A stretch of 64,000 nt of DNA. Source: a phage. A program made the position numbers and the translations under genes. The notes beneath the pieces were generated by a model, which did not search any database, was not told the DNA's origin, and worked only from the letters and a program-made list of their open reading frames with translations. Where the stretch lies: NCBI GenBank assembly GCA_019326865.1, contig GCA_019326865.1_4101.1; one strand, given 5' to 3'. The stretch's first letter is position 1; the number at the start of each line of letters is the position of its first letter. Below, in pieces: positions 1-64,000 of this stretch.

Positions 1-210
1 CGTTTAGACTGGGATATCCTTAACAGAAAAGATGAGCAATCATATGCAAACTGGAGTTCAGATAAAGTACGCAATGAACGCACTAAAGAAGATACTAAAC
101 AGTTTATGGCACTAAGCAAACGATTATCATCACTGAATAGTGAAATTACAGGTCTTCAGAAAGAAATCATTTCGATTCTTCAGGATGAGATTAAGTCACT
201 ATATGAATAA
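1..210 (+). CDS. hypothetical protein, C-terminal fragment (5' end outside window)
   Basis: Reading frame open from base 1 to TAA 208-210; no start inside window. Confidence 0.4.
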   Translation, partial: RLDWDILNRKDEQSYANWSSDKVRNERTKEDTKQFMALSKRLSSLNSEITGLQKEIISILQDEIKSLYE

Positions 211-499
211 ACATGAAGTGATTCATTTTGAAGATAAGATCTATGTACCAAATAGTGATAGTACTGAAACATATTACCTAATCAATAAGATCATGGCTGG
301 AACAAATACTTGTTGTCGCCAACAGCCAGGAAAATATGAGTTCAGTCAGACTATTGGTTTTTACCGATGTGATATGTTAGAATCATTTACTATTGATAAG
401 TCTAAAGTTATTGACATTCTTGTACAGAATGGATATAATGAAGAACGCGTAAATGATACAGATTTACCAGTTTCAAAAATTGTTCTTTCTAATAATTAA
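203..499 (+). CDS. hypothetical protein
   Basis: 98-aa ORF; ATG 203 overlaps upstream stop; track ORF 140..499 trimmed to this in-frame ATG. Confidence 0.45.
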   Translation: MNKHEVIHFEDKIYVPNSDSTETYYLINKIMAGTNTCCRQQPGKYEFSQTIGFYRCDMLESFTIDKSKVIDILVQNGYNEERVNDTDLPVSKIVLSNN

Positions 500-616
500 A
501 CATTGGACAAGAACAAATATTGTGATATAATGTTTGTTATCGGCAGATATTAAAATGCAAACCATTCCTCAATGATGAGGGTTTTTTCATAAAAAAGAAA
601 TAAAAAGGGTATTAAA

Positions 617-826
617 ATGGCTAAAGAAATTACCGCACAAGTACTAGATATCACCGACTTTGATCGCACTGTGAACTACATTCAATTCCAGATTCATCAA
701 GCAGAAGAAGCTCTAGCAGTATTCCACGGTACTGGTGCAAGGCCAATCCGTTTTGCTCACTTAATTGCATGGAAGAAAAGTCTTCAAGAAGAGCTATCTG
801 AACTGCGTAAAGCAAATCGTAAGTAA
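617..826 (+). CDS. hypothetical protein
   Basis: 69-aa ORF, co-oriented gene string; no motif recognised. Confidence 0.45.
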   Translation: MAKEITAQVLDITDFDRTVNYIQFQIHQAEEALAVFHGTGARPIRFAHLIAWKKSLQEELSELRKANRK

Positions 827-892
827 TTTATCTTATCGCCTCATCATTTTTTGATGGGGCATTTTAATCATATAAAGTAAGAGGATTTATAA

Positions 893-1399
893 ATGAGTGT
901 TGAATATTGGTTTTTGTTTGTGTGTATTGGTACACTTGTATTAATCACAATTGGATTGATTTTCAATACCATGATTAGTGGAAGTAAGTACTTTAAGACA
1001 TTTCAACTTTTAATGTCTGCCATGCCATATAGTTCTGATGCAGAAAAAACAATTTCTCTAATTTTAGATAAGTTCGATGCAAATCTTTTAGTTGCTAAAA
1101 TTTCAGCATGTGATACAAATATTTCATTCTACTCTGTAGACACTGAACTAGATGGAATTGATACACAATACAAAAATCCAGCAGTTGCTGAAATTTTCAT
1201 TGGTTCAAAATATTATGCTTATGGTTATGTAAGAAAATATTATTCAGAAGCAAAAGCTGAGTTGACGAAGAAGCGACCATCAATAAAAACGTTAAAACGC
1301 ATCATTGCGTTGGAAGAATCACTTCGTGGTCAAACAAGCGTTAATGAGCCACCATCAGTGATCAAATCCAAAAAAAGTAATGTTGTGGAGTTGGAGTAA
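893..1399 (+). CDS. hypothetical membrane-anchored protein
   Basis: 168 aa; SD AAGAGGA upstream; N-terminal hydrophobic segment. Confidence 0.55.
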   Translation: MSVEYWFLFVCIGTLVLITIGLIFNTMISGSKYFKTFQLLMSAMPYSSDAEKTISLILDKFDANLLVAKISACDTNISFYSVDTELDGIDTQYKNPAVAEIFIGSKYYAYGYVRKYYSEAKAELTKKRPSIKTLKRIIALEESLRGQTSVNEPPSVIKSKKSNVVELE

Positions 1400-1689
1400 T
1401 GGAACCAGAAAAGTCAAGAAAAATTCTTATTGATGTTCAAACTAAATTATTAGATATTATGGAAATTATCAATGAGCTACCACAGGGTTATAAGTACAAA
1501 GTTCGTGAGATGTTATCTTGTGCCGAAACCGTTGTTTCTATGTACGATGATATTCAACATGGTATTATCCCTGATATTCTCAAAGATGACGTAAATATTA
1601 ACACTGAGGTTAAAGAAACTAAATTAGAATCAGAAACAGTATCTAATAAAAAAATTCTTGACCTTAGTGGTATAAAAATTAATATCTAA
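1399..1689 (+). CDS. hypothetical protein
   Basis: 96 aa; start overlaps upstream stop (TAATG). Confidence 0.5.
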   Translation: MEPEKSRKILIDVQTKLLDIMEIINELPQGYKYKVREMLSCAETVVSMYDDIQHGIIPDILKDDVNINTEVKETKLESETVSNKKILDLSGIKINI

Positions 1690-1711
1690 AAAACATCCAA
1701 TAGGAGAAGTA

Positions 1712-1861
1712 ATGAATAATCAAAAAATCGACTTAGTAGTAAAACTTCAAGAGATTCAAGCACTGGCTAAAGAACTTGATAACACACGTGCATCAGTAGT
1801 TGATTCACTATGTGCAACAATCCTGACTGTTTTTACAGATTACGAAAAGAAATCTGATTAA
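1712..1861 (+). CDS. small hypothetical protein (49 aa)
   Basis: SD TAGGAGAAG upstream of ATG 1712; followed by hairpin terminator; below track size cutoff. Confidence 0.35.
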   Translation: MNNQKIDLVVKLQEIQALAKELDNTRASVVDSLCATILTVFTDYEKKSD

Positions 1862-1876
1862 ACGTTACTTTGTAAA

Positions 1877-1904
1877 TACCCAGTTCTTGACTGGGTATTT
1901 TTTT
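1877..1904 (+). terminator. rho-independent terminator
   Basis: Hairpin TACCCAG-N7-CTGGGTA followed by T7 run. Confidence 0.6.
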
Positions 1905-1915
1905 AAGGAAATAAA

Positions 1916-2308
1916 ATGACTGAATCTGAACTACATGAAATAATAGATTTCATTTATGAAATGGTACAAGATAAAAATAACATCAATACAATTGCATCAG
2001 GCCCAAGACAAATTGGTAACCAAATAACATATTCTTTGTCCTTATGGTTACACCCGTGCATCAAGGTTGATTGTTTGTATTTCCGTCCTGATATTAATGC
2101 ATATTATTTTGTAAATCATGATGCATTAATGAAACCACATAATCGTCCTGTTGATGATAACTTTGTGACGCACCCATTTTACCTGGCTGATTCTGAAGAA
2201 GATGAGTTTCAAAAGAACACAACGTTAAGCCCAGGTGAAATTTGCATCCCTTATGAACTAAAAGATAAAATGATTTACATCACAGAAGTTATGAAAACAT
2301 GCTGGTAA
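1916..2308 (+). CDS. hypothetical protein
   Basis: 130-aa ORF, co-oriented; no motif recognised. Confidence 0.5.
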   Translation: MTESELHEIIDFIYEMVQDKNNINTIASGPRQIGNQITYSLSLWLHPCIKVDCLYFRPDINAYYFVNHDALMKPHNRPVDDNFVTHPFYLADSEEDEFQKNTTLSPGEICIPYELKDKMIYITEVMKTCW

Positions 2309-2355
2309 GTGCAATGAAACTCTGATATAATACTATGACTTACTAAGGAGAACAT

Positions 2356-2925: not shown

Positions 2926-2926
2926 C

Positions 2927-6261: not shown

Positions 6262-6699
<438 letters not shown>

Positions 6700-7153: not shown

Positions 7154-7443
<290 letters not shown>

Positions 7444-8238: not shown

Positions 8239-8503
<265 letters not shown>

Positions 8504-8590: not shown

Positions 8591-8647
<57 letters not shown>

Positions 8648-54344: not shown

Positions 54345-54524
54345 ATGCAAGAATTCTATATAGAACATATAACCATAAAAGACCGTTTCATGTACGACAC
54401 CTTCGTGAAATACTACAAACTGGGAACAAAAAGTACTAAAAATATTAATCTCAATAGCTGCATACACCAAGCACTAACAAAAGATAATCCCTTCAGGGAA
54501 ATCCTCGCTCTCGCATCTGTATAA
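54345..54524 (+). CDS. micro-protein array member (59 aa)
   Basis: MQEFYIEHI ... ILALASV; below track cutoff. Confidence 0.45.
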   Translation: MQEFYIEHITIKDRFMYDTFVKYYKLGTKSTKNINLNSCIHQALTKDNPFREILALASV

Positions 54525-54534
54525 AGGAAACCAA

Positions 54535-55194
54535 ATGAAACTTAATCAACACAGCAAACAATACCTTAAACACTTTAAGTACCTCAACAGTATTCAAGCA
54601 GAATCTTTTACACCAGCATATACGTATCACCCAAATGTACTAAAGAAACGAAATAAAAAGAAAAAATCCAGAAATGTTCTCGTATCTAAGAACCTCAAAT
54701 CGTACTTGAAGAAAAATAATATAGCTCTTGCTTTTATTAATATCTATAATACTGATTTAAAAGTATTGAGTACTAATACCAGCACAAAAGCACTAAAGAA
54801 TGCATCTATCTATATACACATGGATAATATCCCGTGCACTATAATTCTATCTTCCGGGAATGTATACTTCTTCGGGAATTGTAATAGCACCCATGATATC
54901 AGTACTGCACAATTCCAAATCGGAGATATGTACTGCATGGGTTCAGAAAAAATACACGATAACATGCACTTCTTCCAAAAGCAACGTACTAACGAAACTG
55001 ATACAGTACTGCAATTCCTCAAAGAATTACAAAACAAAGAATTATCCGAGGAAGAAGAATTCATGTACAGTACTGTAATCGATAATCCAGGACTCTATAA
55101 AAACGCGTACAAACTAACAAAACATGTACAGGAACTTATCAGTACTGATAAGAAATTCCATCACCTCATTACGTATATTTCAAACTATGTATAA
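54535..55194 (+). CDS. hypothetical protein inside micro-protein array, C-terminal EEEFMYSTV motif
   Basis: 219 aa; basic N-terminal region. Confidence 0.5.
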   Translation: MKLNQHSKQYLKHFKYLNSIQAESFTPAYTYHPNVLKKRNKKKKSRNVLVSKNLKSYLKKNNIALAFINIYNTDLKVLSTNTSTKALKNASIYIHMDNIPCTIILSSGNVYFFGNCNSTHDISTAQFQIGDMYCMGSEKIHDNMHFFQKQRTNETDTVLQFLKELQNKELSEEEEFMYSTVIDNPGLYKNAYKLTKHVQELISTDKKFHHLITYISNYV

Positions 55195-55369
55195 AGAATT
55201 CTACAAAGATAAAATCCCAATGCATCTACAACACCATATACCAAACGTTGCATTGGGCATAAAAGATCACGCAAAGATAATGTTCCAACAATGTACTAAG
55301 TACACGCTCATATACGATGATAATCCATATATGCTGTACTACGTAGTAATGCTAACATTCAGGTACTAA
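55187..55369 (+). CDS. micro-protein array member (60 aa)
   Basis: MYKEFYKDKIP ... VMLTFRY; track start 55124 trimmed. Confidence 0.55.
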   Translation: MYKEFYKDKIPMHLQHHIPNVALGIKDHAKIMFQQCTKYTLIYDDNPYMLYYVVMLTFRY

Positions 55370-55370
55370 T

Positions 55371-55550
55371 ATGCACAAATATAAAGAATTCTACCTCTCG
55401 TACCTTAATTCCGATATAGTAACATCCAATACCTTCAGTACTAAAATTATCTATAATGAAGTAATGAAAGAATGTATTAAAGGTGCTATTAACCCTAAAG
55501 ATACGTATGACTTGTACTATGCAGTACTAACCCTTGTTTTCACGAAATAA
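55371..55550 (+). CDS. micro-protein array member (59 aa)
   Basis: MHKYKEFYLSYL ... LTLVFTK; TAAtATG junction. Confidence 0.5.
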   Translation: MHKYKEFYLSYLNSDIVTSNTFSTKIIYNEVMKECIKGAINPKDTYDLYYAVLTLVFTK

Positions 55551-55558
55551 CACATAAT

Positions 55559-55747
55559 ATGAATAACCACAAAGAATACTACATACAATTTCTCCCCAGT
55601 ATTTTTGAACACTACGCCAGATATAAAGTCCCCCTGGATAACGATTTGGCAGTACTGGGATTCAATCACTGCATAGAACGAAGTATAGAAAATAGTAATA
55701 GCTATGAACAATTATATAACACTATCCTACTTATATTCAGGTACTAA
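55559..55747 (+). CDS. micro-protein array member (62 aa)
   Basis: MNNHKEYYIQFLP ... LLIFRY. Confidence 0.55.
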   Translation: MNNHKEYYIQFLPSIFEHYARYKVPLDNDLAVLGFNHCIERSIENSNSYEQLYNTILLIFRY

Positions 55748-55748
55748 T

Positions 55749-55937
55749 ATGCACAAAGAATACTACGCAAAATATTTCCCAATGTATCTCAGAACTAATC
55801 TATTAGATAAACCTCGCGATATCAATGCACAAAACGATAAAGTGTACTTTATTATGTGCACTAAAGCATGTATACTAGATCATGACAGCTACCATCGAGT
55901 ACTGTATCATACACTGTACCTAGCTTTCGTATTCTAA
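55749..55937 (+). CDS. micro-protein array member (62 aa)
   Basis: MHKEYYAKYFP ... LYLAFVF; TAAtATG junction. Confidence 0.55.
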   Translation: MHKEYYAKYFPMYLRTNLLDKPRDINAQNDKVYFIMCTKACILDHDSYHRVLYHTLYLAFVF

Positions 55938-55946
55938 GAGAACAAT

Positions 55947-56132
55947 ATGCATAAAGAATTCTACTTAAGCCATCTGGATCTAAACTCCCAAATGCTTATA
56001 CCACTAATCCCAATAGATATCAAGGATAAGAAAAATACCGAACAATTCATTTACCATACACAGTGTGCGATCACCCCAAATTACATTCCATATGAATTGT
56101 ACTACATTCTCGCCCTAATATATAGGTACTAA
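55947..56132 (+). CDS. micro-protein array member (61 aa)
   Basis: MHKEFYLSHL ... LALIYRY. Confidence 0.55.
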   Translation: MHKEFYLSHLDLNSQMLIPLIPIDIKDKKNTEQFIYHTQCAITPNYIPYELYYILALIYRY

Positions 56133-56133
56133 T

Positions 56134-56319
56134 ATGCATAGAGAATACTACACACAATTTGTTAAAGGGAACTACAAACATGCCGTACCCAGAACCCCTT
56201 TAAATTCTCATGACCCAAGTACTATATTCCTGTTTAATGACGCAATACGTACAGTACTCAATACTAAAGATGAACAAGTGCAGTACGTATTCTTACTTTT
56301 ACTTATATACAGACACTAA
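56134..56319 (+). CDS. micro-protein array member (61 aa)
   Basis: MHREYYTQFV ... LLLLIYRH; TAAtATG junction. Confidence 0.55.
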   Translation: MHREYYTQFVKGNYKHAVPRTPLNSHDPSTIFLFNDAIRTVLNTKDEQVQYVFLLLLIYRH

Positions 56320-56342
56320 CTAATATACAGACACTAACTAAT

Positions 56343-56525
56343 ATGAATAAAGAACATAAAGACTTCTACATAAGAAAACTAACATTCGTCCCCGTAAGAA
56401 TATACAAAGAATGCGACCCAAGATTATACCTATGGCACTTCAATGAGTGCATAAAAGATTCTATATACCCTAAGAACTATAAAGAACAATTGTGCTCAGT
56501 ACTAACACTAGTACTATCATATTAA
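56343..56525 (+). CDS. micro-protein array member (60 aa)
   Basis: MNKEHKDFYIRKL ... LTLVLSY; preceded by 18-bp tandem duplication. Confidence 0.55.
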   Translation: MNKEHKDFYIRKLTFVPVRIYKECDPRLYLWHFNECIKDSIYPKNYKEQLCSVLTLVLSY

Positions 56526-56538
56526 TAGAGATAATACT

Positions 56539-56730
56539 ATGTATAAAGAGTACTATATAAGTAAACTCAAAGAGAATGAACAAGCATGGATTAAATCTAT
56601 AATAGCACTTGCATTTAATAGATATGCATTTAACAGATGCACAGAGATTGCTATAGAACCTTGTCCTATTAAAGAGAAGGCACAGTACAATCAGTACTAC
56701 TATATGTTAATGCTTATATATAGAAAGTAA
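56539..56730 (+). CDS. micro-protein array member (63 aa)
   Basis: MYKEYYISKL ... MLMLIYRK. Confidence 0.55.
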   Translation: MYKEYYISKLKENEQAWIKSIIALAFNRYAFNRCTEIAIEPCPIKEKAQYNQYYYMLMLIYRK

Positions 56731-57124
56731 TTCAACATAGAGACAGGGGAAGCTCCGCAGGGTAAGCATTGGACAGGCTTTAACATATGTTATATATGTT
56801 AAAATTCAGCCTGGACAAATGCGATCACTAGGATTCTCCCCAGGCTAAACCCCGTAATCATATATAAACATTTAAGTAATCATTTATAATCATTGTGGTG
56901 ATCAGTAGTGATTAGTATTGAGTACTAGAGTGTAATAGAGTACAGGAATGTGCACGTTTAATCAAGAACGTAGCAGTACTGATATGCCACTAAGTAGGCA
57001 GAGGAAGTCTGCCGTACTTTGTAGTTTCCAAGCTCCTTTTCCATTTTGCAAATTACATCAAATGTAATCAAAAGTAATCACGTAATGATTAGTACTGAAA
57101 TATTAGTTTCATCTTTTTTCAAAT

Positions 57125-57200
57125 ACCTTTTTACCCTTCGGGATAAATGTATTTTTATCCATTTACCTTTGGGGTAAAATCCCATTACCCCTTGAGGCTC
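57125..57200. repeat. three degenerate ~15-bp direct repeats
   Basis: TACCCTTCGGGATA / TACCTTTGGGGTAA / TACCCCTTGAGGCT in ORF-free DNA. Confidence 0.5.
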
Positions 57201-57386
57201 CAGCAAAAAGTTGGAAAGTACTCCATCGTAAATATGGATCGTAAAAATTTTGGAGTACCTATGAAATAAAAGTTGGATCTTCGAAAGTTGAAATTTACGT
57301 TGGGACATTGATGTTTTTTGGGATATAATGAGTTTTGTAGTGATGAAGTTTGTACGATTACAGTACTGAATAATGAAAGAAAGCTA

Positions 57387-57414
57387 TTGACATTATGATT
57401 CAGTACTGTATAAT
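57387..57414 (+). promoter_or_regulatory. sigma70-type promoter, family A, with no ORF downstream
   Basis: TTGACA-N16-TGTATAAT with TTCAGTACTG spacer; nearest downstream ORF of 60 aa or more is 1.3 kb away. Confidence 0.5.
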
Positions 57415-57785
57415 GTTCTACATAGAGAGATGAGTTGCCGCAAACAATTCATTCACTCTACCTCCTGTCGTGAGACAGTACAGAAAAGATAGTTCCTCCT
57501 ATGCGTGGTACATCTTTTTATAACCTCTTTTTTCGTAATATAAACAGTACTGGTATTAACAGAATGGTATCAGTACTGACTTTAATCTAATACATTATGC
57601 CACCAGCACAAGCTGGTGGATTCCCTCTAACAGTATTCAGTACTACATGATAGTCTTCATCCTCCTAGGGTAACATAGTGAGGGCTATTGTGGGAGTACT
57701 GAATACTCCTTTCAAAAGATAGAATAATGGTATAGTACCGACGGATTTTGGGCGTAGTTACCCTGGGTGGATTTTGGACGTAGAT

Positions 57786-57932
57786 ATGTCTAGCCCTCCA
57801 GAAGTCTGGAAGTAAAGATGGCTATCCATCTAGACGGCTAAACGGATAGATTTCTAGATGGCTGTATGGCTAGACGTTTGGATGGCTAAACGGCTAGATG
57901 GTTACACGTCTGGAAGTATAGACGGCTAAATC
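57786..57932. repeat. iteron-like cluster of short direct repeats
   Basis: GGCTAAACGG x2, GTCTGGAAGTA x2, GATGGCT x3, TAGACGG x2, TAGATGG x2 within ~150 bp. Confidence 0.55.
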
Positions 57933-58619
57933 AAAATTTTTATTTTGTTTTTCCAATAGTTCCCCTACCGCGTGAGGATATTTTTCCCCGCAGTATCTGG
58001 AGTTAGATTTTTCTGAATCTGGAATCATTATCTAATAAACTGGGGGCAATGTCAACCGCCTGGATGAATATTTTTAAAAATAATCTAGTACTGAATTTTG
58101 GGCGTAACTATGCACCCGGTGGGCTTGAGTCTTTCTCGACTTGATGAAACTATTATACAGTACTAGAAAAATAAAGCAATACCCTAAACGCAAAAAATTT
58201 AATTAATTTGCTTGCTATCCTGGGCCGTACTATGGTACTATTAGTTCAGTACTGAGAAAGTGCTTTAACCTGCTAGGGTGCGGGAGTGTATCCTTTTTAA
58301 ATTATATGAATTTTGGACGCAATCCCGCACCCTGTGGGTTAGTGCCTTGTGTCCGGCTTATGTAGTAATTATACGCTTTTTCAGTACTGAGTCAATAGCT
58401 AAAAACAAAAATAATTGAAAATAATTTAACGCGTTTAAACGGCCCGTAAAGCCCTGGAGTGATTGGAATGGTACAAATGTATAGCTTAGGTGTATTAATG
58501 CGTTAGAATGCGTCTGAGGCCGTTTTACGGGGTGTAGTGGTGATTTGGTTGATTCAGTACTGAATGATAGTATTCCTATATAGAAAGAAAACTATTTTAA
58601 AAGTACATGTAGAAAGTAC

Positions 58620-58647
58620 TTGCAAAGTATTGGGAAAGGTGTAGAAT
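58620..58647 (+). promoter_or_regulatory. promoter, family B (TTGCAA-N16-TAGAAT) + 5' hairpin
   Basis: Followed by TTTTACATCGAG and hairpin AGCGGGAA-CAC-TTCCCGCT (58661-58679). Confidence 0.55.
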
Positions 58648-58702
58648 GTTTTACATCGAGAGCGGGAACACTTCCCGCTGCACATAAAGAGAGATTAAAA
58701 CG

Positions 58703-59065
58703 ATGGCTACTCAAATCAATAAAATTATTGCTAACCTGGTTAACTTCCGCGACGAGATGAAAGGTCTTCCGGCTGAAACGGTAAAAATTCACATTTCAGC
58801 TTATCGGGAACTTATTGCAATGTTACCGCTTAAGCGTGAACAATACGCCGCTACCGTGATGCTTGATGCGATGATCCATGAGATGATCGCCAGTGATTTA
58901 ACGATGGTTTATCAGTACATGGGCGAAAATTTCGCGGTGTCTGGTAAGCCAGTACCAGGGATGGCAACTACTGAGGAATTGCACGGTTTAAATTTAAAAC
59001 AAGATGCATGGGATAATATGCCTCGTTTCCTGGTATGGGCTGACAGTGGCAAAATTTACAAATAA
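58703..59065 (+). CDS. hypothetical protein
   Basis: 120 aa; higher-GC codon usage typical of the 58.6-64 kb block. Confidence 0.55.
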   Translation: MATQINKIIANLVNFRDEMKGLPAETVKIHISAYRELIAMLPLKREQYAATVMLDAMIHEMIASDLTMVYQYMGENFAVSGKPVPGMATTEELHGLNLKQDAWDNMPRFLVWADSGKIYK

Positions 59066-59079
59066 GTTTAATAAAGTAC

Positions 59080-59107
59080 TTGCATACTAAGTTAAAACAA
59101 GTATAAT
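59080..59107 (+). promoter_or_regulatory. promoter, family B (TTGCAT-N16-TATAAT) + 5' hairpins
   Basis: Followed by hairpins GGGAAGTTT/AAACTTCCC and AGGGGAA-TAG-TTCCCC. Confidence 0.55.
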
Positions 59108-59186
59108 ACTTTCTATCAGGTGCAACGGGAAGTTTTTAAACTTCCCTATAGGGGAATAGTTCCCCACTATATAAGAGGATTAAAAA

Positions 59187-59426
59187 ATGGCTAAATCAAA
59201 AATGTTCTTAGGTCACAAAAACAAAACTCATTGGAATGTAAGCCTTTGGATTAATAACGATGAGTCATTGTACCGGTTGGCCCAGGACTTTATTGCCGCC
59301 AACACTAATCGCAATGATGCGGCCCGTCATATGATGTTATTTTTAGAACAGACTGGACAAGATAAAACACCGGACGGATTCAAATATAGCACTACTGCGA
59401 TCCGTGCGGCGATGGTTGGAATGTAA
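59187..59426 (+). CDS. hypothetical protein, 79-aa paralog A
   Basis: SD AGAGGAT; KNKTHWNVSLWINNDESLYR ... PDGFKYSTTAIRAAMVGM; paralog of 61223 ORF. Confidence 0.6.
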   Translation: MAKSKMFLGHKNKTHWNVSLWINNDESLYRLAQDFIAANTNRNDAARHMMLFLEQTGQDKTPDGFKYSTTAIRAAMVGM

Positions 59427-59511
59427 TAGAATTTATTTAAAGTACTATCGCAAAAAATGATAGTACTTTATAATAGTGTTTTATTCATACACCAACGATA
59501 AGGGCAACAGC

Positions 59512-59778
59512 ATGAATATTAAGTATTTTGCGACGCGTGAACAAGCTCGGAAGGCGGCGAAAGTGGAAGGTGCAACGTTTAAAGATATGGGCATACAATC
59601 GGAACGTGGTAAACGTTGGGCCATTGTAAAGCGTAGTACAGCCAGATCATTACAGTACTGGTTATCAGCTTTAAAAAGTCCTGATAGTGTATCGCGTCGA
59701 GTGGTAGAAATAAAGCTCGACCGTAAGGGGAATCGTGTTACCGTGTACCGTACTAAAAAGATTGCAGTACTTGAATAA
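59512..59778 (+). CDS. hypothetical basic protein
   Basis: Track ORF 59476..59778 trimmed to ATG 59512. Confidence 0.45.
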   Translation: MNIKYFATREQARKAAKVEGATFKDMGIQSERGKRWAIVKRSTARSLQYWLSALKSPDSVSRRVVEIKLDRKGNRVTVYRTKKIAVLE

Positions 59779-59784
59779 AAGTAC

Positions 59785-59812
59785 TTGCAAAGTAAGTTAA
59801 AAGGCGTATAAT
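59785..59812 (+). promoter_or_regulatory. promoter, family B (TTGCAA-N16-TATAAT) + 5' hairpin
   Basis: Hairpin GTGGGGAA-TAC-TTCCCCAC at 59825-59843. Confidence 0.55.
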
Positions 59813-59862
59813 ACTTTCTATCAGGTGGGGAATACTTCCCCACTACATAAGAGGATTTAAAA

Positions 59863-60093
59863 ATGGCTACCATGTACATGACCGAAGTTAAAACCGTAAA
59901 AGATACTACCACAAATAAAACTACTTACTTACAGCGGATCTGTGGTGTATGGCAACGTATTAGTAAAGTAAAGTACTTTAAATTAACATCATATGCCAAT
60001 CGTTCGGATTCATTCAGTACTGAAATAAAAGGTAATAAAGTACACCAATACGGCACTTATTATTATTATAGCCTGGACGCGATTGCAGTATAA
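59863..60093 (+). CDS. hypothetical protein
   Basis: 76 aa; SD GAGGAT. Confidence 0.5.
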   Translation: MATMYMTEVKTVKDTTTNKTTYLQRICGVWQRISKVKYFKLTSYANRSDSFSTEIKGNKVHQYGTYYYYSLDAIAV

Positions 60094-60340
60094 GCAGTTT
60101 ACAAATCTTTACAATTGCCGGTATTGACTTAAAATGTCAGTACTGGCATAATGTATCTATTGAAACGAACAATTTGGCCCACGGGGTGCGGGAGTGTATC
60201 TATAGAAAAAGTAGTTTAGTACAGTTACAATTGTGCACCCGGTGGGTTAGCTGTTGTCATGGGGTATATTATGCCAGTACTTGATAATGCTGTCAATACC
60301 TTTTTACTATTCAGTACTGAAAACTATTTGATAAAAAGTA

Positions 60341-60368
60341 CTTGCAAACTATGTTTAAAGGCGTATAA
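60341..60368 (+). promoter_or_regulatory. promoter, family B (TTGCAA-N16-TATAAT) + 5' hairpin
   Basis: Followed by TTTTACATCAGG and imperfect hairpin ACGGGGAAC...CTTCCCGT; no ORF before next promoter. Confidence 0.5.
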
Positions 60369-60458
60369 TGTTTTACATCAGGACGGGGAACGAAATAAGT
60401 AACTTCCCGTTAAGTAGCCCAGGAGTAAGGCATACGAAAAACTCCCCTGATAAAATAG

Positions 60459-60487
60459 TTTGACAATTGTTTTTAAAAGCGTATAAT
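60459..60487 (+). promoter_or_regulatory. sigma70-type promoter (TTGACA-N17-TATAAT)
   Basis: Upstream of ORF 60520. Confidence 0.5.
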
Positions 60488-60519
60488 ACTTACATCAACT
60501 ACTTAATGAGGGTTACAAA

Positions 60520-61131
60520 ATGAAAACTATCACTACTACTACTTATGTTATGGATTTTTCTGAATTAAACGCAGAACAAAAAACGTCAGCTATCGAACTG
60601 GTTCGGGAACGTGAAAAAAACTTAAACGACGATTATTTTTCTGAAAGTGAAATTGAATACTATAAAGAAACAGTACTACCGGAATATGGCATTAATGAAG
60701 CTGAAATACAATTCAGTGGTTTTTGGTCGCAGGGTGACGGTGCATCAATTAGTACTGACCACGTTGACGCAGTGAAGTTTTTACGTAAGGTAAGAGCATT
60801 AACTAAGTATCGCTCAATCCGTCACCTGCTGAATGAAGATGATTTGGCGATGAGTGTAAAGCGTTCTCACTCCCGCTACTCACATGAGAACACTGTAAGC
60901 GGGTACATTGAATCGGCTTACACTGATTTAACCGCAAAACAAGAAACGTTAGTTAATGGGCTTGAGGAACTGCTCACTGATACTATTCGTGAATTGTCAC
61001 GCAAGTTATACCGTGATTTAGAGAATGCATATGAGGATCAATTCACTACTGAAAACATCGTATCACTGATTGAGGGTAACGAATATCAATTCAATGTTAT
61101 TGATGGCGTAGTAGAATCAATTGCATATTAA
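60520..61131 (+). CDS. hypothetical protein
   Basis: 203 aa; SD GAGGGT. Confidence 0.55.
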   Translation: MKTITTTTYVMDFSELNAEQKTSAIELVREREKNLNDDYFSESEIEYYKETVLPEYGINEAEIQFSGFWSQGDGASISTDHVDAVKFLRKVRALTKYRSIRHLLNEDDLAMSVKRSHSRYSHENTVSGYIESAYTDLTAKQETLVNGLEELLTDTIRELSRKLYRDLENAYEDQFTTENIVSLIEGNEYQFNVIDGVVESIAY

Positions 61132-61138
61132 AAAGTAC

Positions 61139-61166
61139 TTGCAAACTAAGTTTAAAAGCGTATAAT
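61139..61166 (+). promoter_or_regulatory. promoter, family B (TTGCAA-N16-TATAAT) + 5' hairpin
   Basis: Hairpin GCGGGGGAA-TGG-TTCCCCTGC at 61180-61200. Confidence 0.55.
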
Positions 61167-61222
61167 ACTTTATATCGAGGCGGGGGAATGGTTCCCCTGC
61201 TCAAACAAACGAGGATTTAAAA

Positions 61223-61462
61223 ATGGCTAGTACTAAAACTTACAACGGACACAAAAACAAAACTCATTGGAATGTTTCATTGTGGATTAATAACGATGAA
61301 TCATTATACCGGATTGCTCAAAATTGCATCGCTCAAAGTAAAACGAAAGATATTGCAGCGGAATTTATGTACCGCAGATTAAAAGCCAACGGTACTACTA
61401 CAACGCCGGACGGATTCAAGTATAGCACTACGGCGATCCGTGCTGCAATGGTTGGAATGTAA
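61223..61462 (+). CDS. hypothetical protein, 79-aa paralog B
   Basis: SD GAGGAT; same KNKTHWNVSLWINNDESLYR and PDGFKYSTTAIRAAMVGM blocks as 59187 ORF. Confidence 0.6.
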   Translation: MASTKTYNGHKNKTHWNVSLWINNDESLYRIAQNCIAQSKTKDIAAEFMYRRLKANGTTTTPDGFKYSTTAIRAAMVGM

Positions 61463-61518
61463 CATTCAGTACTGAATCAATGGCGGGTGTGGTTCCCGCC
61501 TTTACTGAGGATTATCTA

Positions 61519-61800
61519 ATGAGTAAAGTAATTAACTATACAGTACTAAGCAAGTCATTATCTATTAGCCAGTGCACCGATGGTTTTTGGCTGTACGATG
61601 AAACGCGTGGCATGAATTTAGCTATGCAGGAGAAAACTGCTGATGCGGCATATCTTAAAGCACTGGAATACTACCAGAAGCGTTTAACGGAAGTAGAAAA
61701 CGATTATAATAACCTTAAAGCGAAAGTGGATAATTTCGTTGGTCAATTCGTTGACGATGACGAGGGGCACTACTGCGACCGTTGTGGATCTTACAGTTAA
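61519..61800 (+). CDS. hypothetical protein
   Basis: SD GAGGAT before ATG 61519; track start 61480 rejected. Confidence 0.45.
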   Translation: MSKVINYTVLSKSLSISQCTDGFWLYDETRGMNLAMQEKTADAAYLKALEYYQKRLTEVENDYNNLKAKVDNFVGQFVDDDEGHYCDRCGSYS

Positions 61801-61817
61801 GTACTAAGGATTATATA

Positions 61818-62021
61818 ATGAGTGATTTAATTGAACGTATCAAAGAGCTTGAAGAAAAAGAATTGCAGTTGATCGGTTTACAGAATAAAATCTATCATGA
61901 TTTGGGGAGTTTTATCAATGCGTGGGATAATGGCGATCCTGATGCGTTACCTGCTAACCGCCAGGCAATGATCAATGATGTGCGTGGTGTCTTTGAGTAT
62001 GTTTTAAAGCAATTAAATTAA
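61818..62021 (+). CDS. hypothetical protein
   Basis: SD AAGGAT before ATG 61818. Confidence 0.45.
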   Translation: MSDLIERIKELEEKELQLIGLQNKIYHDLGSFINAWDNGDPDALPANRQAMINDVRGVFEYVLKQLN

Positions 62022-62031
62022 AAAAAAGTAC

Positions 62032-62059
62032 TTGCAATTAGTTTTTAGTACTGTATAAT
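62032..62059 (+). promoter_or_regulatory. promoter, family B (TTGCAA-N16-TGTATAAT) + 5' hairpin
   Basis: Hairpin AGGGGAGAA-ATG-GTTCTCCCT at 62070-62090. Confidence 0.55.
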
Positions 62060-62109
62060 GTTTTACATAGAGGGGAGAAATGGTTCTCCCTGGTAATGAG
62101 GAAAATACA

Positions 62110-62331
62110 ATGGCTAATATCACTACTCTTTCTCAACTGGAAGCACTGGTTAAATCTATGCGGGAACATGCCGACAAAATCGGCGTAAAAGATCCAGCCG
62201 TTTGCTTCTGCGACGAAATGAATGATGATACATTGGTAATAGCAGAAGTTCAGGACGTTTCTAACTATTCATCGCGTTACACTGGCGGCGTAGCAAATAA
62301 AGGTGACTTCTGTTTATACCTTACCAAATAA
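62110..62331 (+). CDS. hypothetical protein
   Basis: SD GAGGAAAA before ATG 62110; first ATG lies inside 5' hairpin and was rejected. Confidence 0.5.
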   Translation: MANITTLSQLEALVKSMREHADKIGVKDPAVCFCDEMNDDTLVIAEVQDVSNYSSRYTGGVANKGDFCLYLTK

Positions 62332-62336
62332 CAACG

Positions 62337-62366
62337 CGGGGAGATAATAACTCCCCGTTACTTTTT
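62337..62366 (+). terminator. rho-independent terminator
   Basis: CGGGGAG-ATAATAA-CTCCCCG followed by T-run. Confidence 0.55.
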
Positions 62367-62499
62367 CAGTACTGAATAATTTAATAGACGGATCTATGCA
62401 CCCAGTGGGTTAGTGACTGTTTCGTCTTTATGTAGTAATTATGCCAGTACTGGATGCACTTGTCAACAACTATTTTTCAAATACTTTTTATTAAAATAC

Positions 62500-62527
62500 T
62501 TGCAATTAGTTTTTAAACGCGTATAAT
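62500..62527 (+). promoter_or_regulatory. promoter, family B (TTGCAA-N16-TATAAT) + 5' hairpin
   Basis: Hairpin GGGGGAGCGGTTCCCC at 62538-62553. Confidence 0.55.
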
Positions 62528-62574
62528 GTTTTGCATAGGGGGAGCGGTTCCCCTGGTAACTAAGGAATAAGAAA

Positions 62575-62811
62575 ATGGTCGAACAAATCAAATCAACGTC
62601 TTCGAATGTAACGGGAACGGTAGCACACTTTACTTGTGATGAATCGCGGGGCGTTCCCTATTGTGCTGTACATGTAAACACTGAGGGTAACTACTGGTTT
62701 ACGGTTTACGGATCATATTCATTTGGACGGCCAGGGCATCAAAAAATTCTGGATAAAGTACAACCAACGGGTAAAAATATCACTGCCGAAATGTTTTATA
62801 AAAACAAATAA
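62575..62811 (+). CDS. hypothetical protein
   Basis: 78-aa ORF. Confidence 0.5.
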   Translation: MVEQIKSTSSNVTGTVAHFTCDESRGVPYCAVHVNTEGNYWFTVYGSYSFGRPGHQKILDKVQPTGKNITAEMFYKNK

Positions 62812-62828
62812 AAGTACTTGATAATAGT

Positions 62829-62856
62829 TTGACTATGTATTACAGTACTGTATAAT
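62829..62856 (+). promoter_or_regulatory. promoter (TTGACT-N16-TGTATAAT) + 5' hairpin
   Basis: Spacer contains TACAGTACTG; hairpin AGGGGCGAA-TAG-TTTGCCCCT. Confidence 0.5.
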
Positions 62857-62905
62857 AGATACATAAGGGGCGAATAGTTTGCCCCTAGTACAAAGGGGAA
62901 ACATT

Positions 62906-63136
62906 ATGCCAGGCCGAATAGTTTTACTTAACGCTGGAAGTACTACACAACTCCTTAACGCCGTGTATTATGATATTGAAACGAGCGTCAATCTTATCAG
63001 TACTGTAGTATTGTTGGACACTGGAAAGGTCGCAAATGATAAAGCGATTGCAGGTATACTAACGGATCTTAAACCAGGTTGCAGTACTCCAATAACTTTA
63101 AATGATAAAGTGTTTAATATTTTACTAACTGATTAA
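62906..63136 (+). CDS. hypothetical protein
   Basis: SD AAGGGGAAA before ATG 62906. Confidence 0.5.
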   Translation: MPGRIVLLNAGSTTQLLNAVYYDIETSVNLISTVVLLDTGKVANDKAIAGILTDLKPGCSTPITLNDKVFNILLTD

Positions 63137-63142
63137 GTACAT

Positions 63143-63170
63143 AGCCCACCTGGTGGGCTTTTTTGTTTTT
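63143..63170 (+). terminator. rho-independent terminator
   Basis: AGCCCACC/GGTGGGCT hairpin + T-run. Confidence 0.7.
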
Positions 63171-63208
63171 GTAGTACTGCATACTTTGAAAATAGTTTTA
63201 AAAAAGTA

Positions 63209-63237
63209 GTTGACATTACCGCAAAAAGGCGTAGAAT
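63209..63237 (+). promoter_or_regulatory. sigma70-type promoter (TTGACA-N17-TAGAAT)
   Basis: Followed by TTACATCAAG leader. Confidence 0.5.
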
Positions 63238-63360
63238 GTATTACATCAAGACGGGGAGCACTAAGTAGACCGCCAGTAAGTCGAACGAAAAACTGGACAC
63301 GTCGAGAAAACTTTGATACACTAACTAACATAAACTAAACTTTAATTGAGGATTTATAAA

Positions 63361-63843
63361 ATGGCTAATGTAAAATCATTTCTGAAAGCACTGATTTCTA
63401 ACGATACTGCTATTGCTGCTGAATTGCTGGCGGATCTGGATAGCGATACCATGAAAGCGGTACGCAACAATTTTAACATTGCGTACAGTGAAGCTAAAGA
63501 ACTGCAAGCCAAAAAGATAGCAGAACTGGAAGAACAGAAAAAAGCCCGTGAAGAAGAATTACAAGCAACAATTGAAAGTATTCAGGCGGCGGTTGCAGGG
63601 TTGGATCTGGAAGTAGTTATTGAAATGGCACATAAAGCCCTGGCAGTTAAGTACGGTGAAGATAAGCCAGTATCTAAACCTAAAAAATGGATTCAGGAAC
63701 GCGTAACGGTTGTTCTTGATAATGGCGAGGAACATTTAATTCCCGTGCGTGGTAACTGCATTGCGGTAGTTCTGGATGCTATCAAAGAAAGCGGATTGAC
63801 TCGCGAGGAATGGATCGAAGCTCACCGCAAGATTGAAGCATAA
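63361..63843 (+). CDS. hypothetical protein
   Basis: SD GAGGAT before ATG 63361. Confidence 0.55.
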   Translation: MANVKSFLKALISNDTAIAAELLADLDSDTMKAVRNNFNIAYSEAKELQAKKIAELEEQKKAREEELQATIESIQAAVAGLDLEVVIEMAHKALAVKYGEDKPVSKPKKWIQERVTVVLDNGEEHLIPVRGNCIAVVLDAIKESGLTREEWIEAHRKIEA

Positions 63844-63864
63844 CAATTAAAGTACTGAATCACT

Positions 63865-63892
63865 AGCCCACTTCTTATAGTGGGCTTTTTTG
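63865..63892 (+). terminator. rho-independent terminator
   Basis: AGCCCACT-TCTTAT-AGTGGGCT + T6. Confidence 0.7.
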
Positions 63893-64000
63893 TGTTTATC
63901 GTTTACCAGTCCACTAGCACCGCCTAGAATCGATTCTAACGCATTAAACTGGTCGCCCTAGCTGGTGGCATTAATGCCGTTAGAACGCGATTGAGGACGT

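Follow-up and report, generated by a model that had tools for sequence, protein, structure and literature searches.

TF1 of phage SPO1 and p6 of phage phi29 cover the entire genome of their phage and, in addition, regulate its early promoters. In cyanobacteria, the palindrome HIP1 is hyperabundant and conserved and has been linked to orphan methyltransferases (PMC4390886, PMC5861425). Here, we describe the palindrome AGTACT in a 64-kb stretch of phage DNA (the window; 64,000 nucleotides) and in related phages. We found no published description of hyperabundant AGTACT in these phages in the literature.

RESULTS

The original prediction singled out CAGTACTG as strikingly frequent, and we found 48 exact copies, more than for any other 8-mer in the window, compared to 0.78 expected and a maximum of 4 in 100 dinucleotide shuffles; the expectation of a maximal-order Markov model (42) is high only because that model absorbs the signal of the core. 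The 12-bp palindrome TTCAGTACTGAA is present in 7 copies where 0 are expected. The hexamer AGTACT occurs 184 times, or once per 348 bp, compared to 21.8 copies expected from composition and 18-36 from order-1/2 Markov models. While the exact word reaches 8.5x expectation, its one-mismatch variants in the window lie at 0.5-3.5x, most of them at 1-2x. Given the 184 cores, CAGTACTG is itself about 9-fold above the flank-composition expectation (48 vs ~5). It is the hexamer that is enriched and conserved; selection does not act on the 8- or 12-bp form.

Base composition and the codons of recurring protein motifs had been named as possible sources of this excess. Synonymous-codon shuffling, the proper control for both codons and protein motifs, left both words in excess, with 138 AGTACT in the coding sequences of the window compared to 44.9 ± 5.6 after shuffling, and 27 CAGTACTG compared to 3.6 ± 1.6. 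In the related phage PBECO4 (348-kb genome), the coding sequences hold 760 AGTACT compared to 211.5 ± 10.6, and the overall coding excess is 3-3.6x. Three quarters of the copies in the window are intragenic (137/184), and these occupy all three codon frames (56/36/45); the source of the signal is the DNA sequence itself, not the encoded protein. Noncoding DNA has double the coding density (4.9 vs 2.5 per kb), longer palindromes are concentrated there (10-mer, 1.04 vs 0.07 per kb), and density peaks in the first 25 nt past stop codons (5.3 vs ~2.6 per kb). Spacing between copies is near-random, yet there is a genome-wide excess at 20-23 bp (24 vs 10.8).

PBECO4 carries 891 AGTACT compared to 118 expected, and each of its 10-kb bins is enriched at least 3.5x, including those with structural and replication genes. 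RaK2 (Alcyoneusvirus) is enriched 14.9x, the Mimasvirus phages GAP32 and CBB 7.4x and 10.3x, fENko-Kae01 7.5-19x, and the metagenomic contig L021 21x, such that the enrichment is common to Asteriusvirus, Alcyoneusvirus, Mimasvirus, fENko-Kae01, and a metagenomic relative, at 7-20x chance overall. All enriched genomes sampled infect Enterobacterales (E. coli, Klebsiella, Cronobacter, and Pectobacterium). No enrichment was found in PA5oct (0.08x), one T4-like phage (0.65x), one rV5-like phage (0.24x), or a single 50-kb sample of E. coli (3 vs 11.6 expected), relative to which AGTACT is ~45 times denser in the phage. The contrast originally drawn with the depletion of palindromes in phages is a real one: these jumbo phages of enterobacteria have lost most restriction-type palindromes, with 23 6-bp palindromes and GCGC at zero copies in PBECO4.

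Aligned AGTACT sites are conserved in 142 of 166 cases (86%) compared to 57% of all hexamers (p = 7e-15), and copies in coding DNA are conserved at 84% vs 57%. In an independent pair, TH47 and PBECO4, 92/119 sites in the middle genes are conserved (77% vs 42.5%, p = 2e-14). Since per-base identity at aligned sites is 0.94-0.98 in the core and ~0.89 in the flanks, purifying selection acts on exactly six bases, with the flanks unconserved; together with the weak enrichment of one-mismatch variants, a signal this sharp would be more usual for restriction-modification-type enzymes than for transcription factors. Together, shuffles and conservation bear out the earlier view that selection rather than chance underlies the frequency of the word. 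The statistically preferred form is symmetric, T-N-C-AGTACT-G-N-A, with C at -1 favored 2.6-3.6x and G at -1 avoided (0.1-0.5x) in coding and noncoding sites alike, and GAGTACTC makes up only 4 of 891 AGTACT sites. This symmetry is as expected for a dyad-symmetric reader. The preference differs by genus, being CAGTACTG in Asteriusvirus and RaK2 but weak and A-biased in GAP32, and is thus a better fit to a co-evolving phage reader than to a conserved host protein.

In sigma-70-type early promoters, the first base of AGTACT falls at -7/-8 or at -27 relative to the -10 hexamer, two registers 20 bp apart of which one is fused to the -35 hexamer and the other abuts the -10 (Table 1). The positional bias that had been proposed as a check is evident in PBECO4, where starts pile up at -7 (19) and -27 (21) from TATAAT compared to ~2 per other position, and where no register was seen at TATAAATA or TGAAACG-type motifs. 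RaK2 combines both sites in one promoter, always 20 bp apart, with a spacer of 16 or 17 bp. Near-consensus sigma-70 promoters carry AGTACT in 21/35 cases in RaK2, 21/117 in PBECO4, and 8/35 in the window (in the spacer), and the claim that most family-A promoters contain the palindrome was therefore too broad. That its TG creates an extended -10 (TGnTATAAT) holds for the minority with a 17-bp spacer (6671 and 60124 on the plus strand; 60296 and 62466 on the minus strand) but not for the commoner CTGTATAAT form, where the TG falls outside that register. The promoter sites at 6685, 22283, 36093, 57401, and 62843 agree with the predicted positions within 2 nt, while the one placed at 6280 reads GAGTACTG (6276-6283) and thus contains the 6-mer core without being a copy of the 8-mer. 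These registers are consistent with an operator bound by a dimeric protein. An operator would account for the fixed promoter positions but not for the whole, as ~90% of sites lie outside promoters (promoter copies being ~10%, ~22/184), most are intragenic, and every PBECO4 10-kb bin is enriched. Since promoter copies sit in repeated cassettes, shared ancestry may explain some of their uniformity.

Table 1. Positions of AGTACT-containing features in the window
Feature	Coordinates	Strand	Description
AGTACT sites	1-64000		184 copies: 48 CAGTACTG, 18 AAGTACTT; 137 in ORFs, 47 noncoding
Family-A promoter	6262-6289	+	TTGACT-N9-GAGTACTG-TATAAT; 6-mer core only
Family-A promoter	6671-6699	+	TTGACT-N8-CAGTACTG-a-TATAAT; 17-bp spacer; upstream of tRNA-Gly
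12-bp palindrome	8475-8486		Perfect TTCAGTACTGAA; intergenic gap, tRNA region
12-bp palindrome	8595-8606		Perfect TTCAGTACTGAA; 120 bp from copy at 8475-8486
Family-A promoter	22269-22296	+	TTGACA-N8-CAGTACTG-TATAAT
Family-A promoter	36079-36106	+	TTGACA-N8-CAGTACTG-TATAAT
Hairpin	46218-46237	+	CCAGTACT-gaat-AGTACTGG, from two palindrome copies
RCC1-like gene terminator	48138-48156	-	ACCAGTACTTGATACTGGC, then T-run on minus strand
RCC1-like gene terminator	49560-49578	-	Same design as 48138-48156
RCC1-like gene terminator	50738-50765	-	ATACCAGTAC-loop-GTACTGGTAT, then T-run on minus strand
RCC1-like gene terminator	51996-52017	-	Same design as 50738-50765
High-density zone	54000-64000		52 AGTACT and 17 CAGTACTG in 56-64 kb
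Family-A promoter	57387-57414	+	TTGACA-N8-CAGTACTG-TATAAT; 12/12 consensus; extra CAGTACTG at 57361, 40 bp upstream
Hairpin	57545-57578	+	14 pairs; CAGTACTG in each arm
12-bp palindrome	58553-58564		Perfect; ~60 bp upstream of family-B promoter at 58615
Family-B promoter	58615-58647	+	AGTACT-TGCAA-N16-TAGAAT; AGTACT fused to -35
Family-B promoter	59780-59812	+	AGTACT-TGCAA-N16-TATAAT
12-bp palindrome	60013-60024		Perfect
Family-A promoter	60124-60152	+	TTGACT-N8-CAGTACTG-G-CATAAT; TG in extended -10 register
Family-A promoter, leftward	60268-60296	-	TTGACA-N8-AAGTACTGG-CATAAT
Family-B promoter	60337-60369	+	AGTACT-TGCAA-N16-TATAAT; perfect 12-mer at 60310-60321, 27 bp upstream
Family-B promoter	61134-61166	+	AGTACT-TGCAA-N16-TATAAT
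12-bp palindrome	61465-61476		Perfect; 3 nt past stop of ORF 61223-61462, immediately 5' of GC-rich hairpin
Dual-site promoter	62027-62059	+	AGTACT-TGCAA-N9-AGTACTG-TATAAT; palindromes 20 bp apart; RaK2-type architecture
12-bp palindrome	62365-62376		Perfect; directly after terminator hairpin 62336-62358
Family-A promoter, leftward	62438-62466	-	TTGACA-N8-CCAGTACTGG-CATAAT
Family-A promoter	62829-62856	+	TTGACT-N8-CAGTACTG-TATAAT

The CCAGTACTGG-type hairpins originally noted at RCC1-like genes are real and are minus-strand intrinsic terminators (GCCAGTAcTTGATACTGGC followed by a T-run), repeated between tandem paralogues. The isolated 12-mers lie at 8475, 8595, 58553, 61465, and 62365, the last of which had been placed 13 nt away (62378), and two more lie at 60013 and 60310. 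AGTACT reaches its highest density in the terminal-repeat, immediate-early region. In the high-density zone of the window, the ORFs are small and each has its own promoter and terminator; this zone corresponds to PBECO4 130-160 kb, where AGTACT is enriched 14-20x. Parts of it align to the direct terminal repeat annotated in fENko-Kae01. In that phage, the edge of the 19.7-kb repeat coincides exactly with a jump in AGTACT density from 1.4-3.2 to 5-8 per kb. The suggested search for a helix-turn-helix dimer able to bind the palindrome found no recognisable HTH, RHH, TetR-type, or other DNA-binding domain among the 131 window ORFs scanned, and no sequence-specific regulator is listed in the RefSeq annotation of PBECO4.

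DISCUSSION

From these patterns, we infer a protein that reads AGTACT, its encoding by the phage, and its putative role as a repressor. Our tentative reading, to which we give slightly less than an even chance, is that AGTACT is a genome-wide landing site for a putative DNA-binding dimer, probably encoded by the phage, that would also gate early promoters. The reader of this double-stranded DNA would most likely be a sequence-specific homodimer, phage-encoded or virion-delivered, for which AGTACT would serve as a mark of phage DNA. Since the word is so much denser there than in the E. coli sample, the protein would bind phage DNA nearly exclusively, about once every 350-400 bp. At early promoters, where the sites overlap the -35 and -10 hexamers at their upstream edges, two helical turns apart, we would expect the bound protein to keep RNA polymerase out and thereby to turn off, or in some other way gate, early transcription.

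A strict 6-bp palindrome under selection, with unconserved flanks and barely enriched single-mismatch variants, is also the recognition style of restriction-modification systems, and AGTACT may be the target of a phage-encoded orphan methyltransferase or nickase with type-II-like specificity, its sites being retained to mark phage DNA epigenetically or structurally, an idea already put forward for HIP1 and its orphan methyltransferases. We consider this unlikely, though worth weighing given the HIP1 precedent, the Dam-family N6-adenine and C5-cytosine methyltransferases encoded by the clade, and an extra methyltransferase-like ORF in the window (40346-41248). Other phages are also poor in AGTACT (0.08-0.65x), as would suit a word that is a target of restriction there, in which case a genome full of it would need protection. 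However, that ORF lies in a segment absent from PBECO4 and most relatives, and the only methylation reported in RaK2 is CpG and Dam/Dcm-type (PMC3622015), while AGTACT contains neither CpG nor GATC. The deamination neighbors lack VSP-repair-like depletion (AGTATT, 61 vs 44-58 expected; AATACT, 52 vs 42-46), the symmetric -1/+1 preference is unexpected for a pure 6-bp enzyme site, and a mark alone explains neither the enrichment nor the fixed promoter registers, such that a reader would still be needed. It is improbable that the word instead recruits or titrates an Enterobacterales DNA-binding protein, such as a nucleoid-occlusion or nucleoid-associated factor, with the phage hijacking a host function. 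The restriction of enriched genomes to Enterobacterales phages, with the related Pseudomonas phage PA5oct lacking the word, would fit, and the SlmA-binding site of E. coli, GTGAGTACTCAC, shares the AGTACT centre (PMC3020112). SlmA requires position 1 to be G and position 3 to be a purine (PMC3020112), while the phage sites favor T and C at these positions and disfavor G. These flank requirements argue against SlmA as the reader, as does the scarcity of GTNAGNNCTNAC (0 copies in the window, 2 in PBECO4) and of GT.AGTACT.AC (0 and 1). Host proteins are conserved, yet the preferred flanks change from one phage genus to another. We know of no other host factor with AGTACT specificity.

A non-adaptive origin through biased mutation, repair, or gene conversion of near-cognates into AGTACT during intense recombination-dependent replication, with promoter copies as passengers, would yield all-frame enrichment and apparent conservation of existing sites, and density is highest in noncoding DNA, where constraint is lowest. 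We doubt this strongly, since no single-mismatch neighbor is symmetrically depleted as directed conversion would require, and a sequence-blind drive does not predict the -7/-27 registers, the 20-bp pairing, or the density step at the terminal repeat. The known VSP-repair bias of E. coli is also far smaller than a 7-20x effect. The narrow form of the earlier view, that the palindrome is a mere cis element of duplicated cassettes (a spacer or extended -10 feature, or a hairpin block) with no separate reader, draws on the similar flanks of the repeated family-A, family-B, and RCC1 terminator cassettes and on the TG register of the 17-bp-spacer variants. As a complete explanation it is already contradicted by the coding-region data, and we regard it as very improbable: ~90% of copies lie outside promoters and terminators, 75% are intragenic and conserved above background, and enrichment extends to structural and replication genes and to Mimasvirus regions nearly without such promoters. 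We give equally scant weight to an action in RNA, whereby self-complementary CAGUACUG copies in one transcript would pair into processing or termination structures. Copy pairs do form the two hairpins and the RCC1 terminators in Table 1, and density peaks just past stop codons, but a bare 6-mer, as most copies are, is too short to pair stably in RNA, the spacing of copies is near-random, and promoter-spacer and -35 copies lie upstream of start sites and are untranscribed from those promoters.

A dimeric, probably phage-encoded reader of AGTACT would follow a logic similar to that of SPO1 TF1 and phi29 p6, combining genome-wide coating with early-promoter control, with the difference that its specificity would lie in a sequence word and not in a modified base. 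As a word, the closest analogue of AGTACT is cyanobacterial HIP1.

Over-representation of AGTACT in the window

The original prediction, that an 8-bp palindrome is strikingly frequent in the window, holds, and the effect extends far more widely than first thought. CAGTACTG is the commonest 8-mer of all in the window, with 48 copies compared to 0.78 expected from dinucleotide shuffles, and the 12-mer form TTCAGTACTGAA is present in 7 copies versus 0 expected. The signal is nested, as the 6-bp core AGTACT occurs 184 times against 21.8 expected from composition (order 0) and 18-36 from first- and second-order Markov models, and 48 of these 184 copies extend to CAGTACTG versus ~5 expected from flank composition; the 8-mer is simply the most frequent extension of the core. 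Since single-mismatch variants of AGTACT are barely enriched in the window (0.5-3.5-fold, most 1-2-fold), only the exact hexamer shows the strong enrichment. The coordinates first assigned to the palindrome were right to within a few bases, except that the site at 6280 is GAGTACTG and the one at 62378 should be 62365. Spacing between AGTACT sites is near-exponential genome-wide, apart from an excess at 20-23 bp (24 versus 10.8).

AGTACT is denser in noncoding DNA than in ORFs of the window (4.9 versus 2.5 per kb), and so are CAGTACTG (2.18 versus 0.50 per kb) and the 10-mer form (1.04 versus 0.07 per kb); density is also raised in the first 25 nt past stop codons (5.3 versus ~2.6 per kb). Nevertheless, 137 of the 184 sites (75%) lie within ORFs, where they are distributed 56/36/45 over the three frames. 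When codons were shuffled synonymously gene by gene, with proteins and codon usage held constant, window coding sequences retained 44.9 +/- 5.6 copies of AGTACT compared to 138 observed and 3.6 +/- 1.6 copies of CAGTACTG compared to 27 observed, while those of PBECO4, the related 348-kb Asteriusvirus genome used as our whole-genome reference, retained 211.5 +/- 10.6 copies of AGTACT compared to 760 observed. Base composition and the codons of recurring protein motifs (QYS/STV) had been named beforehand as the effects to correct for, and the enrichment survives correction for both; a protein-motif origin is ruled out by the use of all frames and by counts 3-3.6 times above the synonymous shuffles. 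A repeat-family artefact is likewise ruled out, as contexts vary and the 137 genic copies sit in unrelated genes. Since the enrichment persists beyond composition and protein codons, AGTACT is imposed at the DNA level, and its retention implies a codon-choice cost borne by the phage throughout its genes. Read in frame, the palindrome encodes Ser-Thr (AGT-ACT), as it does in 56 of the 137 coding copies, and the window carries, at 7192-7283, an unusual tRNA-Ser whose ACT anticodon reads AGT.

Extent across the clade and avoidance of other palindromes

The window is ~90% identical to Asteriusvirus jumbo coliphages (PBECO4, 121Q, G17, and phAPEC6) and represents the early region of their genomes, rich in small ORFs, with a G+C content of 31-39% and seven tRNA genes; an Rfam search of the window returned tRNAs only. 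The full 348 kb of PBECO4 contain 891 copies of AGTACT versus 118 expected (7.6-fold), and every 10-kb bin is enriched at least 3.5-fold, including those with tail, head, replication, and nucleotide-metabolism genes. A peak of 14-20-fold at 130-160 kb is the counterpart of the last 10 kb of the window. In five further clade genomes, AGTACT is 7-21 times enriched (see table), and its density in phage DNA is ~45 times that measured in a single 50-kb stretch of host (E. coli) DNA.

Genomic features of the window and occurrence of AGTACT in related and unrelated genomes
Feature or genome	Location	AGTACT (observed vs expected, or fold)
Dual-site promoter, both palindrome registers	62027-62059	
RpoD-like sigma factor	18921-19874	
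Five RCC1-like genes, one block	minus strand	
Noncoding-rich stretch	54-64 kb of window	
RaK2, Alcyoneusvirus, Klebsiella (50 kb)		250 vs 16.8; 94 CAGTACTG
GAP32, Mimasvirus		7.4-fold
CBB, Mimasvirus		10.3-fold
fENko-Kae01, Klebsiella aerogenes phage		7.5-19-fold
L021, divergent metagenomic contig		86 vs 4.1
PA5oct, Pseudomonas jumbo phage		1 vs 13.3
T4-like phage		0.65-fold
rV5-like coliphage		0.24-fold
E. coli K-12 chromosome (50 kb)		3 vs 11.6

Other short palindromes behave in the opposite manner. PBECO4 has 0 copies of 23 GC-containing 6-bp palindromes and of the 4-mer GCGC; other restriction-type palindromes are thus swept from this genome, and AGTACT is the sole exception. GCGC is absent from the window, PBECO4 (~290 expected), CBB, fENko-Kae01, and the metagenomic relative, compared to 342 copies (~7 per kb) in the 50-kb E. 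coli sample. Avoidance of this extent is far from ordinary, and a phage nuclease directed against host DNA might lie behind it in addition to anti-restriction. A restriction-modification site would be expected to be avoided in genomes exposed to the enzyme, yet AGTACT is enriched across the clade, and its depletion is seen in PA5oct, the T4-like and rV5-like phages, and the E. coli sample. Together, AGTACT hyperabundance and GCGC absence form a simple alignment-free signature of the clade, which singled out the divergent contig L021.

Positions 38801-41248 hold the gene of a GmrSD-type protein (type IV restriction-like, DUF262) and, after it, a methyltransferase-like ORF; PBECO4 and most relatives lack this segment, which may therefore represent a variable defence/counter-defence island. 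A ~250-nt stretch at 59153-59430 shares 82-91% identity with a hypothetical gene of rV5-like, Phapecoctavirus, and Justusliebigvirus coliphages, with >100 matching records, all from coliphages unrelated to the window phage; judging from these matches, the small gene looks like a case of recent horizontal exchange between phage families. The ORF at 59187-59426 has a paralogue at 61223-61462.

Conservation and flank preference

To compare AGTACT sites between genomes, we aligned 166 of them between the window and PBECO4 at 89% identity and found that 142 (86%) are fully conserved, versus 57% of all hexamers (p = 7e-15). Coding and noncoding sites are both better conserved than their backgrounds (84% versus 57% and 89% versus 61%, respectively), and middle genes of TH47 and PBECO4, at 83.5% identity, gave a similar picture, with 77% of AGTACT sites conserved versus 42.5% (p = 2e-14). 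Per-base identity is 0.94-0.98 over the six core bases and falls to ~0.89, the background level, just outside; the outer C and G that extend the core to the 8-mer show no more conservation than background.

The flanks are nonetheless not random. At the -1 position, C is 2.6-3.6-fold over-represented and G is held to 0.1-0.5-fold, symmetrically and in coding and noncoding sites alike, and the GAGTACTC form accounts for only 4 of the 891 PBECO4 sites. The preference is weak and A-shifted in GAP32. Conservation of six core bases alone is what a strict short palindrome of the restriction-modification type would show, yet the symmetric -1/+1 preference is added to it.

Promoter registers and terminators

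The original prediction placed the palindrome in the spacer of most family-A promoters. Of 35 near-consensus sigma-70 promoters of the window, 8 have the start of AGTACT 7 or 8 bp ahead of the -10 element (family A, as in TTGACA-N8-CAGTACTG-TATAAT), and two more carry AGTGCT instead at this position. In family B, a repeated arrangement at 58.6-63.3 kb (AGTACT-TGCAA-N16-TATAAT), the word is fused to the -35 hexamer. The same design recurs in RaK2, where AGTACT abuts the -10 element in 21 of 35 strong promoters and many promoters carry both copies, whose starts are always 20 bp apart, with 16-bp and 17-bp spacers alike. Anchoring on TATAAT in PBECO4 revealed AGTACT starts at -7 (19 sites) and -27 (21 sites) versus ~2 per position elsewhere, so that the -7/-8 and -27 registers stand ~10 times above neighbouring positions; no AGTACT register was found at TATAAATA or TGAAACG-type motifs of PBECO4. 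When 2.9 million viral contigs were searched for exact matches to the composite promoter, RaK2, 121Q, and a single metagenomic contig were the only hits, and a single-protein scan of viral contigs for sigma-factor relatives returned 121Q alone.

These registers bear on two readings proposed at the outset. The TG of the palindrome was said to give an extended -10, which fits the 17-bp-spacer variants at 6671, 60124, 60296 (minus strand), and 62466 (minus strand) but not the five CTGTATAAT promoters, in which TG directly abuts the -10 hexamer and is off the TGnTATAAT register. The suggestion of an operator is borne out in part: sites have dyad symmetry and a fixed place relative to the -35 and -10 elements, but they are not mainly regulatory, since most lie in genes and only ~10% in promoters.

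AGTACT sites also occur directly 5' of, or inside, terminator hairpins. The hairpins between the RCC1-like genes and the one at 62336-62358 have the GC-containing stem-loop and subsequent T-run of intrinsic terminators; such hairpins account for <10 of the 184 sites.

The densest zone and the terminal repeat

The fENko-Kae01 genome has an annotated direct terminal repeat of 19.7 kb, within which AGTACT occurs at 5-8 per kb, compared to 1.4-3.2 per kb past its boundary, and window positions 60.6-62.1 kb align to this repeat. In CBB, RpoD-like early promoters have been placed on the terminal repeat (PMC5259590). Together, the density step, the alignment, and the promoter placement in CBB suggest that the zone densest in AGTACT is most likely terminal and immediate-early.

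Several elements of this zone were observed in their own right. A stretch of ~2 kb at 56730-58700 has no convincing ORF and no Rfam match. It contains several strong promoters of either orientation, many copies of the palindrome, and, at 57818-57929, an array of 8/16/24-bp periodicity with units like ATGGCTAA and ACGGCTAG; an origin, an iteron array, and a noncoding-RNA locus are all conceivable here. A repeated 42-nt element, with minus-strand units at 58092-58133, 58307-58348, and 62378-62419, is found downstream of leftward promoters (62466 and 58395), opposing plus-strand ORFs, and its copy at 62378 ends at the terminator at 62336-62358, which is bidirectional. These elements may be small antisense RNAs.

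Search for a protein that reads the word

A Pfam scan of 131 window ORFs returned no HTH, RHH, TetR, or other classical DNA-binding regulator, and ten promoter-proximal or sigma-adjacent ORFs matched only PHROGs families of unknown function; for the rest of the ~350-kb genome the search covered RefSeq product names, among which PBECO4 has no sequence-specific regulator. The sole nucleic-acid-type module in the scanned ORFs is a set of three CapR/treble-clef zinc-finger repeats in the protein encoded at 30868-32052, in the early region beside a protein kinase. Its annotation is that of a virion structural protein; it shows 65% identity in RaK2 and has no PDB match. The RaK2 annotation names a T4-like (RB49) homologue for it, so the protein is not clade-specific, and we rejected it as a candidate. 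PBECO4 gp055 (36985-37425) is annotated as a "starvation-inducible transcriptional regulator" but is DUF5856/ferritin-like, and therefore Dps-like rather than a sequence-specific regulator.

Host proteins fared no better. The LexA, TrpR, MetR, and Cra boxes have a half-site orientation or spacing unlike that of the palindrome. SlmA requires G1, T2, purine3, A4, and G5 in each half-site (PMC3020112), and its sites are ruled out by flank rules and counts: the phage sites prefer T/T/C flanks and disfavour G at both -1 and -3, and the SlmA-type GTNAGNNCTNAC has no copy in the window and two in PBECO4. Our literature search found no published description of AGTACT abundance, which is not mentioned in the CBB (PMC5259590) and RaK2 (PMC3622015) genome papers, and a comparative jumbo-phage paper has nothing on DNA-binding proteins of this clade.

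Interpretation

The combined features are best explained by a sequence-specific, dyad-symmetric reader of duplex DNA that would work along the entire phage genome and, in addition, regulate early promoters. We propose such a reader because the palindrome is exact, has a symmetric flank preference, and is kept in ~900 conserved copies per genome; because it is confined to one clade, with a flank preference that drifts between genera, and is near-absent from the host sample; and because it peaks in density at the terminal repeat and occupies two promoter registers two helical turns apart. Since both registers overlap the -35/-10 elements contacted by sigma-70, we infer that the reader would repress early promoters (early shut-off).

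The main rival is that AGTACT is the site of a modification or nicking enzyme, to which the sharp 6-bp specificity would be well suited, but the enrichment would still need a reader of the mark. The clade does encode Dam-family and C5 methyltransferases, and RaK2 DNA methylation has been reported as CpG and Dam-type (PMC3622015); neither target lies within AGTACT. A repair or conversion drive of the VSP type is argued against by the window, where no one-step neighbour of AGTACT is symmetrically depleted.

Beyond a genome-wide reader, it is conceivable, though we consider it rather unlikely, that these phages tell self from host by vocabulary rather than by base modification, combining AGTACT and its phage reader as a positive word, most frequent in the terminal repeat that enters first, with negative words like GCGC. 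A new phage protein would then load solely on phage DNA and gate the immediate-early promoters, while the absent words would leave only host DNA exposed to nucleases. If true, this would establish a self-recognition principle new to phage genomes, together with a new family of sequence-specific DNA-binding proteins.

More generally, ~900 conserved copies of one 6-bp word per genome, seen in several phage genera, imply an undescribed reader, and its identity would explain immediate-early promoter control in jumbo phages of the RaK2/121Q type, which are without T4 base modifications and are therapy candidates against E. coli and Klebsiella. The search could yield a new, highly specific DNA-binding or DNA-modifying protein.

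Comparison with known systems

Classical repressor operators are few per genome, 14-20 bp long, and degenerate. They share with AGTACT dyad symmetry, a fixed register with promoter hexamers, and pairs two helical turns apart, whereas AGTACT has ~900 copies per genome, mostly genic, and is under selection at six exact bases. Chi, DNA uptake sequences, and KOPS are asymmetric and orientation-dependent words, found about once per 1-5 kb, for which the reading machines are known. Like AGTACT, they are short and dense in "self" DNA but scarce elsewhere; unlike them, AGTACT is palindromic, ~3-10 times denser, and without a known reader in place of their dedicated protein machines.

SPO1 TF1 and phi29 p6 are phage proteins that bind the whole phage genome in preference to host DNA and repress early promoters overlapped by their preferred sites, with discrimination via hydroxymethyluracil for TF1 and via DNA shape for p6. 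Their logic is the one proposed for the AGTACT reader, a likeness that is functional only; neither uses a 6-bp word. The SlmA site of E. coli, GTGAGTACTCAC, is a 12-bp palindrome scattered over the genome and bound by a dimeric TetR-family protein (PMC3020112). It shares its AGTACT centre with the phage word but has G/T/purine at positions 1-3 where the phage has T/T/C, and only 0-2 sites per phage genome fit SlmA.

HIP1 (GCGATCGC), the highly iterated palindrome, is hyperabundant in cyanobacteria and tied to orphan methyltransferases (PMC4390886; PMC5861425). HIP1 and AGTACT are both short, exact, lineage-specific palindromes, many-fold over-represented in coding and noncoding DNA and more conserved between related genomes than their surroundings, and function is unsettled for both; AGTACT thus shares with HIP-type words over-representation, presence in all coding frames, and conservation above background. 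On the other hand, HIP1 is an 8-mer of cellular genomes that embeds targets of two orphan methyltransferases and is spaced quasi-periodically, whereas AGTACT is a 6-mer core in a virus, without an evident cognate methyltransferase and with near-random spacing save for the 20-23-bp excess. Fixed promoter registers, a terminal-repeat peak, and the extreme avoidance of other palindromes alongside also set AGTACT apart from HIP1. Since phage genomes can be quickly recoded and assayed, AGTACT phages offer a tractable model for the HIP1 problem. Altogether, HIP1 is the closest known phenomenon, and AGTACT is HIP-like, but viral and wired into promoters.
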